From assembly GCF_003334385.1 (NCBI RefSeq), contig NZ_QOWN01000112.1: 1,434 nt of DNA. One strand, 5' to 3'. Under the pieces are notes generated by a model, which ran no database searches, had not been told where the DNA came from, and saw nothing but the letters and a program-made list of their open reading frames with translations. Shown here piece after piece: positions 1 through 1,434 of the stretch. Source of the DNA: Escherichia coli (GTDB lineage Bacteria > Pseudomonadota > Gammaproteobacteria > Enterobacterales > Enterobacteriaceae). The position numbers and the translations under genes were made by a program. Positions within the stretch are counted from its first letter, which is position 1, and each line of letters starts with the position of its first letter.

Positions 1-77
1 AACGCGAGGCATCGTCTTAACGAGGCACCGAGGCGTCGCATTCTTCAGATGGTTCAACCCTTAAGTTAGCGCTTATG
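1..77 (-). mobile_element. Partial end of an IS186-like (IS4-family) insertion sequence. The 23-bp terminal inverted repeat is at 55-77 with the tip at 77 abutting cynT; the element body continues beyond the left window edge.
   Basis: Positions 55-77 are the reverse complement of CATAAGCGCTAACTTAAGGGTTG, which I recall as the IS186 terminal IR. Positions 1-79 are the perfect reverse complement of 1356-1434. The CynT reading frame departs from the expected protein exactly at the tip. The subterminal 1-54 is not recognisable as a host gene. Confidence 0.6.
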
Positions 78-605
78 GGCGATCCGCCCCTCTTCGAGCG
101 CCAGGCGCACCGATGGATGAGTTTGCAAATTAGCCAACTGAGCAATGACGTTTTCACGTACCATCGCCGCAGCTTTTGACGGTAAATCGGAATGCGGGCG
201 CGCCTCATTAACGACGCGGGCTGAATCGGCATAACGCAGCCAGTGGGAGACGGCAGGCATATGGTCCATGCACTGACAGCTGGCAATGGCGGTCATCGCG
301 CCACAGTTGGAATGACCACAAATCACAATGTCAGATACCCGAAGCGCAGCGACGGCATACTCCACCGAAGCAGAAACGCCACCGGGTTCCGGCCCGTAGG
401 AAGGGACGATATTGCCCGCGTTGCGAATAACGAACAGATCGCCAGGCTCACGTTGCGTCACCAGCTCAGGGACCAGACGGCTGTCGGAGCAGGAGATAAA
501 AAGTGTGCGCGGGCTTTGCTGTGTCGCCAGCTGTTTAAACAAGGCTTCCCGCTTCGGAAATGCCTCGCGCTGGAATTTAAGGAATCCATCAATAATCTCT
601 TTCAC
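66..605 (-). CDS. cynT: Beta-class carbonic anhydrase CynT, 3'-truncated by the element junction (probable pseudogene). Native codons span 78-605 (176 codons); the last three codons (His-Lys-Arg) and the stop at 66-68 are read from the element end.
   Basis: The translation [30 protein letters not shown]... matches E. coli CynT as I recall it up to ...LALEEGRIA, then diverges (expected continuation LHGWVYDIESG..., full length about 219 aa). Zinc-ligand motifs CSDSR and HSNCG are retained. The start codon is GTG at 603-605 (- strand) with an AGAGG Shine-Dalgarno about 6 nt upstream (+ coordinates 611-615). Confidence 0.88.
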
Positions 606-713
606 CGTTAACCTCTGTCTGTCTCTGGAATGAGAGGCAGACTACTCGCCGATTGTCATAAGGTAAAAGTCTCATTTATGATGAGTTCCATTGGATTTAC
701 TTATAGGTTGCGA
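606..713. promoter_or_regulatory. cynR-cynT divergent intergenic control region (108 bp), expected to hold the overlapping divergent promoters and the CynR operator.
   Basis: The region lies between the divergent start codons of cynT (605, -) and cynR (714, +). LysR-type regulators typically bind in such regions and autoregulate. It is AT-rich relative to the flanking coding DNA. Confidence 0.55.
653..682 (+). promoter_or_regulatory. Candidate sigma70 promoter for cynR: -35 TTGTCA (653-658), 18-bp spacer, -10 TATGAT (677-682). It overlaps the dyad TCATAA (656-661) / TTATGA (676-681), a possible CynR operator half-site pair.
   Basis: Hexamers match the consensus TTGACA/TATAAT at 5/6 each with 18-bp spacing. 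The predicted transcription start is about 25 nt upstream of the cynR ATG at 714. The 6-bp inverted repeat with 14-bp spacer overlaps the promoter, as expected for LysR autoregulation. Sequence inspection only. Confidence 0.3.
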
Positions 714-1418
714 ATGCTCTCTCGACATATCAATTATTTTCTTGCCGTGGCTGAACATGGCAGCTTCACCCGTGCCGCCAGTGCGTTGCACGTCTCCCAA
801 CCTGCGCTTTCCCAGCAGATTCGCCAGTTAGAGGAGAGTTTAGGCGTGCCGCTGTTTGACCGTAGCGGGCGAACGATTCGTCTCACTGATGCAGGAGAAG
901 TCTGGCGACAGTACGCCAGCCGGGCGTTACAGGAACTGGGGGCGGGTAAACGGGCGATTCATGATGTTGCCGATCTGACGCGAGGATCGCTGCGTATCGC
1001 CGTCACCCCCACCTTTACGAGCTACTTTATCGGCCCCTTAATGGCGGATTTCTATGCGCGCTATCCCAGCATCACGCTCCAGCTACAGGAAATGTCGCAG
1101 GAGAAAATCGAGGATATGCTTTGCCGCGACGAGTTGGACGTTGGGATTGCCTTCGCGCCTGTGCATTCGCCGGAGCTGGAGGCAATTCCTTTACTGACAG
1201 AAAGTTTAGCGTTAGTCGTGGCGCAACATCATCCGCTGGCCGTCCATGAACAGGTGGCGTTGAGTCGCTTGCATGATGAAAAACTGGTCCTGCTCAGCGC
1301 GGAATTTGCCACCAGAGAGCAAATTGACCACTACTGCGAGAAAGCGGGGCTACATCCCATAAGCGCTAACTTAAGGGTTGAACCATCTGAAGAATGCGAC
1401 GCCTCGGTGCCTCGTTAA
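714..1418 (+). CDS. cynR: LysR-family transcriptional regulator CynR (cyn operon activator), 3'-truncated by the element junction (probable pseudogene). Native codons span 714-1358 (215 codons), followed by a 19-aa tail ([19 protein letters not shown]) and stop at 1416-1418 read from the element end.
   Basis: The translation from ATG 714, [50 protein letters not shown]..., is a typical LysR N-terminal helix-turn-helix and matches E. coli CynR as I recall it through ...[10 protein letters not shown]. The expected continuation is QVVIEANSISAV..., full length about 299 aa. An AGG lies 6-9 nt upstream of the ATG. The ORF-track start at 630 is an in-frame upstream extension that I reject. Confidence 0.88.
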
Positions 1419-1434
1419 GACGATGCCTCGCGTT
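1358..1434 (+). mobile_element. Partial end of an IS186-like (IS4-family) insertion sequence. The 23-bp terminal inverted repeat is at 1358-1380 with the tip at 1358 abutting cynR; the element body continues beyond the right window edge.
   Basis: CATAAGCGCTAACTTAAGGGTTG at 1358-1380. Positions 1356-1434 are the perfect reverse complement of 1-79. The CynR frame departs from the expected protein exactly here. The subterminal region carries three direct GCCTCG copies (1401-1406, 1409-1414, 1425-1430). Confidence 0.6.

Follow-up and report, generated by a model that had tools for sequence, protein, structure and literature searches.

The cyn segment and its truncated genes

The window, by which we mean the whole stretch of DNA analysed here, is 1,434 bp long and constitutes the entire source record (recorded source length 1434). 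Its interior at positions 78-1357 (1,280 bp) is 100 % identical to the cynT'-cynR' region of E. coli K-12 MG1655, with the wild-type match running from position 77/78 to 1357. Two truncated genes are found in divergent orientation around an intact intergenic region. On the minus strand, the open reading frame at 66-605 corresponds to cynT, encoding a carbonic anhydrase, and shows 100 % DNA identity to the annotated K-12 gene. It retains 176 of the 219 native codons, followed by His-Lys-Arg and a stop read from the end of an IS186 element, resulting in a 179-aa fusion. On the plus strand, the open reading frame at 714-1418, whose start was placed from the K-12 annotation, corresponds to the LysR-type activator gene cynR. 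The predicted protein is native through Pro215 of 299 aa and continues with 19 IS186-encoded residues before a stop, resulting in a 234-aa fusion. Both genes run into the repeat that forms the termini of the window and have their stop codons inside it. The divergent cynR-cynT intergenic region (606-713), with its promoter and operator, is identical to K-12 between the annotated CDSs.

Both fusions are found in public assemblies. The exact 179-aa CynT fusion is on record in 100 collection blocks, and the exact 234-aa CynR fusion occurs in numerous assemblies, some of them complete genomes that carry IS186 at the same site. We also observed that an IS5-family transposase interrupts the cynT-cynR match in NZ_CP101915.1 (strain Evo1) and in NZ_CP137705.1, a further IS insertion in the same 1.3-kb interval.

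IS186 at both ends of the window

Each end of the window is occupied by a short piece of IS186. The left stub (1-77, plus strand) consists of the last 77 nt of the element, the end located downstream of the transposase stop codon, and is the reverse complement of the right one (1358-1434, minus strand), a second, inverted stub of the same transposase-distal end. Both are identical at 77/77 positions to this end of the MG1655 feature 'insertion sequence:IS186A', and 1358-1434 is furthermore identical to the first 77 nt of the IS186 found at the cynR junction of E308, where the transposase CDS is on the minus strand. The 23-bp terminal inverted repeat of the element, CATAAGCGCTAACTTAAGGGTTG, is present at both window junctions. 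The transposase of the left copy would read rightwards and that of the right copy leftwards, in both cases toward the cyn segment. Past the 23-bp repeat the left and right ends of IS186 are different, and both stubs correspond to the same end; two separate IS186 copies, inverted relative to each other, thus bracket the segment.

Full copies of the element at these junctions in other genomes (cynR in E308, cynT in SCU-104) are 1,339 bp long with a perfect 23-bp terminal inverted repeat and encode a 370-aa IS4-family transposase of the IS186/IS421 type; the window holds just 77 nt per copy. The cynT junction with a full IS186 was found in SCU-104, with the transposase CDS on the plus strand, and in GCA_037022815.1. 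Of the 5,426 complete E. coli genomes, 2,144 carry the stub sequence, and these carriers have a median of 3 copies and up to 22. Apart from these exact copies, many E. coli plasmids of about 90-145 kb carry, in unannotated stretches, a match of about 89 % to the IS186 end plus adjacent bases. By this similarity the plasmid sequence is possibly the end of a diverged IS186/IS421-like element.

Target sites and occurrence in other genomes

The target consensus of IS186 is GGGG(N6/N7)CCCC (PMC5009759). A motif scan showed that both insertions in the window lie in sites with 1 mismatch each to this consensus, GGGG-CGGATCG-CCCt in cynT, read on the minus strand (the cynT strand), and GGGG-CTACAT-CCaC in cynR. 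Inside these motifs, the window contains one copy of the target duplication for each insertion, GGCGATCCGCC at positions 78-88 for the cynT site and GGCTACATCC at positions 1348-1357 for the cynR site. Related genomes show both copies: the 11-bp GGCGGATCGCC is found on both sides of a 1,339-bp IS186 at the cynT site in GCA_037022815.1, and the 10-bp GGCTACATCC flanks a 1,339-bp IS186 at the cynR site in E308 and in loci L011 and L013-L017, while the window shows the inner flanks only.

We compared the two junctions to the 5,426 complete E. coli genomes. The cynR junction is found in 10 of them in the orientation of the window and in 4 in the opposite orientation. The cynT junction is found in a single one (plus GCA_037022815.1), and its 40-mer has no match in the GTDB representative genomes or the JGI metagenome contigs. 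None of the 5,426 genomes has both junctions together. An independent NCBI isolate, GCA_024395315.1, contains a contig of 1,269 bp (ABHFRE010000158.1, recovered indirectly through a partial CynT variant) that equals window positions 84-1352 with 1 SNP. This span indicates that the assembly of the second isolate breaks at the same two sites.

The cynR-site motif (window 1346-1359) is a recurrent natural target of IS186 and is occupied in both orientations. The cyn alleles of the genomes with IS186 at this site are 100 %, 99.3 % and 98.5 % identical to the window, and these identities together with the two orientations point to at least five independent cynR-site events. A 213-aa CynR, truncated at the cynR site by the end of a contig, is found in 394 collection blocks, so contig ends at this position are very common in public assemblies. 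A search of the literature for a link between IS186 and cynR found nothing relevant, the two being mentioned jointly only in an unrelated context.

The terminal repeat and the probable assembly overlap

A repeat search found a single repeat in the window, a perfect inverted repeat of 79 nt (1-79 versus 1356-1434, 100 % complementary) that reaches both termini exactly. Such a repeat, anchored at both termini, is far beyond chance. Its left arm (1-79) consists of the IS186 stub plus GG and its right arm (1356-1434) of CC plus the IS186 stub, that is, 77 nt of IS186 and a dinucleotide contributed by the target flank. We found CC immediately before the CATAAG start of the element in 13 of the 14 distinct IS186 flanks read here. 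This dinucleotide is constant beside the IS186 ends because the element inserts at GGGG(N6/N7)CCCC, and the repeat as an assembler would see it is CC+IS186+GG. Consequently, counting the IS bases alone gives the wrong k.

The figure of 77 nt is itself a matter of definition. It rests on the element boundary being set at the 23-bp terminal repeat (CATAAG start), whereas in the MG1655 annotation IS186 extends by 3 more nt at either end, giving 1345 bp instead of 1339 bp. While "77" shifts with the chosen boundary, the 79-nt repeat is the definition-free quantity.

We simulated the assembly of a synthetic locus carrying IS186 at both sites, inverted and with duplications, and derived from it the unitig that holds the cyn segment. 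For graphs in which contigs overlap by k (edge-type), k=55 resulted in a contig of 1,386 bp with a stub of 53 nt per end, k=77 in 1,430 bp with 75 nt and k=127 in 1,530 bp with 125 nt, none of which matches the window. With k=79 the contig is 1,434 bp with 77 nt per end and is identical to the window. The same contig (1,434 bp, 77 nt per end, identical to the window) is obtained with k=80 when contigs overlap by k-1 (node-type). The IS stub length equals k-2 in the edge-type simulations at k=55, 77 and 127. Each end of the window covers 79 nt of the effective repeat CC+IS186, and each arm of the terminal repeat would equal the overlap used by the assembler. From this we infer that the source assembler used k=79, if its contigs overlap by k, or k=80, if they overlap by k-1.

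Other public contigs that end in the same IS end carry stubs of other lengths: 136-138 nt of IS in contigs assembled with MEGAHIT k141, 125 nt in one NCBI draft contig, which is k-2 if k=127 is assumed, and 51 nt in another public scaffold. The stubs of 136-138 nt and 125 nt track the k of their own assemblies, and the contig ends as a group are consistent with a graph overlap. A different kind of contig end was also observed, as many public contigs (from NCBI and Logan, plus one built with MEGAHIT) carry no IS stub and terminate within the 6-7-nt target core, 4-6 nt before the IS junction. Such ends may result from overlap trimming combined with flank bases common to other IS186 junctions.

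A preliminary description of this DNA had noted symmetric 77-bp stubs and read them as the signature of a de Bruijn-graph contig terminating in a collapsed repeat, for example at k=77. The symmetry is borne out at 1-77 and 1358-1434 when the boundary is set at CATAAGCGCTAACTTAAGGGTTG, with 77/77 identity to IS186A. The collapsed-repeat reading is likewise supported, since the window is a whole record, the stub is multi-copy and the simulation yields the exact contig. The value of k is another matter. It is conceivable that the same kind of contig was built at k=77 and ended at the first k-mer lying wholly inside an IS186 delimited by CATAAG. The default top k of SPAdes for 150-bp reads is 77, and each end of the contig has exactly 77 nt of IS when the count starts at the 23-bp terminal repeat. 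However, the contig ends share 79 nt, and a k=77 graph would merge them already at CC plus the first 75 nt of the IS, yielding the 1,430-bp unitig with 75-nt stubs. With CC in 13 of 14 IS186 flanks there is no separate branch point after 77 nt of IS at which the path would stop, and the NCBI draft contig ending 125 nt into the IS fits the k-2 rule under its assumed k of 127. We therefore consider the k=77 version of the contig quite improbable. What speaks against our own estimate is that k=79 and k=80 are uncommon defaults while 77 is that of SPAdes, and an assembler-specific rule for contig ends could account for the difference.

The window could also be an excerpt of a finished long-read genome whose symmetric boundaries are coincidental. 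Nothing positive favors this reading beyond the existence of genomes outside the searched collections. Against it, the source length of 1434 equals the window length, the two junctions occur together in 0 of the 5,426 complete E. coli genomes, an arbitrary cut would need the same offset to the base at both ends, and the graph simulation reproduces the record exactly. We give very little credence to such an excerpt.

Taken as a whole, the evidence argues that the window is very probably a complete short-read de Bruijn-graph contig bounded by two inverted IS186 copies in cynT and cynR. The two copies (IS4 family, 1,339 bp) would interrupt cynT after codon 176 and cynR after codon 215, with 1,280 bp between them, each copy sitting at a near-consensus GGGG-N6/7-CCCC target and having its transposase-distal end turned to the cyn segment. 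The assembler, presumably of the de Bruijn type, would have collapsed the multi-copy IS186 into one node and emitted the unique cyn segment with exactly one graph overlap of the repeat (79 nt: CC plus 77 nt of IS186) at each end. The outer flanks in the source genome would be the rest of cynT with cynS on one side and the rest of cynR with codA on the other.

The exact symmetry of the stubs also bears on the genetic background. In K-12, the flanking bases next to this end of IS186A and IS186C are ATCC, as at the cynR junction, and a simulation in which the K-12 IS186A is present gives an asymmetric contig with stubs of 77 and 75 nt. Under pure unitig logic, the exact symmetry implies a source without the IS186A copy of K-12. 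A K-12 laboratory background, which the 100 % K-12 identity of the cyn allele might have indicated, is unlikely under the same logic, as IS186A would produce the 77/75 asymmetry. The symmetric window suggests a non-K-12 background despite the K-12-identical allele.

Linkage, orientation and co-occurrence of the two insertions

The preliminary description had further stated that the outward linkage of the segment, its orientation and even the presence of both insertions in the same cell are left open by the sequence. For linkage and orientation our results agree. When the cyn segment is flipped between the two IS186 copies, the simulation returns an identical contig. Recombinant junctions are also found in real genomes. 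In the finished genome of SCU-104 (NZ_CP053284.1), the cynT-junction IS186 (1739-3077 of locus L002) borders on its far side a CRISPR repeat of type I-E adjacent to iap, and it has no target duplication. In this genome IS186-by-IS186 recombination has separated cynT' from cynS, the event probably being a large inversion. In GCA_047262435.1 the cynR-junction IS186 (3645-4982 of locus L012, 1,338 bp) has its far flank in an invasin-like gene, and this flank begins with ACTG and not with the usual GG, indicating another rearranged or non-canonical junction. The unrelated far flanks in these two genomes imply that IS186 recombination has rearranged these very junctions in nature. Gene order, segment orientation and copy number should consequently not be inferred from a contig of this kind.

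The sequence goes most of the way to settling whether both insertions are in the same cell. We considered a mixed sample made up of cells with IS186 in cynT alone and cells with IS186 in cynR alone, the junctions having been stitched together by the assembler. Both sites are hit independently in nature and genomes with single insertions exist. Simulated mixtures, whether of cynT-only with cynR-only cells or of double-insertion with wild-type cells, nevertheless gave a contig of 1,281 bp that lacks any IS stub: the wild-type alternative makes the graph branch at each junction, so that any sizeable wild-type allele would end the contig there. Because the window has 77 nt of IS186 at both ends, essentially all sampled molecules carry both insertions; this holds above the coverage cut-offs of the assembler, and rarer variants are invisible. 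The independent isolate assembly GCA_024395315.1 breaking at both sites also argues against stitching. A population mixture is rejected by the simulation and is in our view very improbable. On balance, the part of the preliminary description that concerns a collapsed-repeat boundary with open linkage and orientation stands, while k=77 and the same-cell doubt do not, and the source strain carries one IS186 insertion in cynT and another in cynR, both on one molecule.

Two inverted IS copies around a short segment have the architecture of a compound transposon, and we considered that IS186-cynT'R'-IS186 moves as a unit or is an excised molecule. Such a unit would have the transposase-proximal end of IS186, with its 23-bp terminal repeat, on both outer sides. 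Each junction is, however, accounted for by one simple insertion, with a duplication of its own, at a target resembling the consensus, and no relocated IS186-flanked cyn segment, bounded as a unit by a duplication, was found in the searched collections, where all copies of the segment lie either at the native chromosomal locus or, uninterrupted, on F' lac plasmids. We rejected a compound transposon or mobilised cassette on the ground that no relocated copy was found, and regard this possibility as exceedingly improbable. As to the plasmids, the cynT-cynR segment is present with intact genes and 100 % identity on plasmids of roughly 214-242 kb in laboratory K-12 strains, which we take to be of the F' lac type.

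Consequences for the cyn operon

As read from the sequence, the CynR activator and the CynT carbonic anhydrase are both truncated and cynS-cynX would be cut off from their promoter. With both proteins truncated and cynS-cynX separated from the promoter, the cyn operon is very likely inactive and cyanate utilisation probably lost. The double insertion also creates an IS186-bracketed cassette that is potentially invertible by recombination, as homologous recombination between the inverted copies could flip the 1.28-kb segment.

IS186 has entered the cynR site in at least 5 independent backgrounds and orientations, the cynT site is also hit, and both are hit in at least 2 isolates. We speculate that the cyn operon is a recurrent natural target of IS186 in which the repeated loss of cyanate sensing and detoxification is selected, and not a neutral by-product of two motifs located 1.3 kb apart. 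For the moment we regard this hypothesis as rather unlikely.

The useful outcomes of this analysis are a k corrected from 77 to 79, the placement of both insertions on one molecule and the identification of a recurrently targeted motif in cynR. On the methodological side, the overlap of an IS-bounded contig should be read from the full shared sequence, here 79 nt, and not from the IS bases alone. The terminal inverted repeat marks where the assembly breaks off and should not be mistaken for a biological hairpin, the end of a small transposable element or the end of a linear replicon.

Comparison with known systems

[quoted passage not shown] As at known IS186 targets, the sites in the window combine a G-run with a C-run, and duplications of 10-11 bp are seen in related genomes. 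Compared to the target consensus, both window targets are off by one base in the C-run. Compared to a full IS186, the window has 77 nt per copy, hence neither the transposase genes nor the outer duplications are in view.

In the compound transposons Tn10 and Tn5, inverted IS4-family elements are found, and the window likewise has inverted IS4-family copies around a short chromosomal segment. The difference is that the unit in the window comes without evidence of movement, carries two truncated genes as cargo and is bounded by IS copies that each show a separate insertion signature.

The closest likeness is with the de Bruijn contigs of draft assemblies that are bounded by collapsed insertion sequences. 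The window joins a textbook boundary of this kind to two ordinary IS186 insertions at near-consensus targets, and the mechanism is already known. Like such contigs, it is short, makes up a whole record and has both termini in a multi-copy IS; it apparently penetrates the repeat by one overlap, as reproduced by the unitig simulation, and it has lost the linkage to its neighbours. Unlike the usual IS-bounded contig, it has a probable overlap of 79, which is not a common default, and it enters the same end of the same IS twice, resulting in a terminal inverted repeat where two unrelated stubs are usually found.
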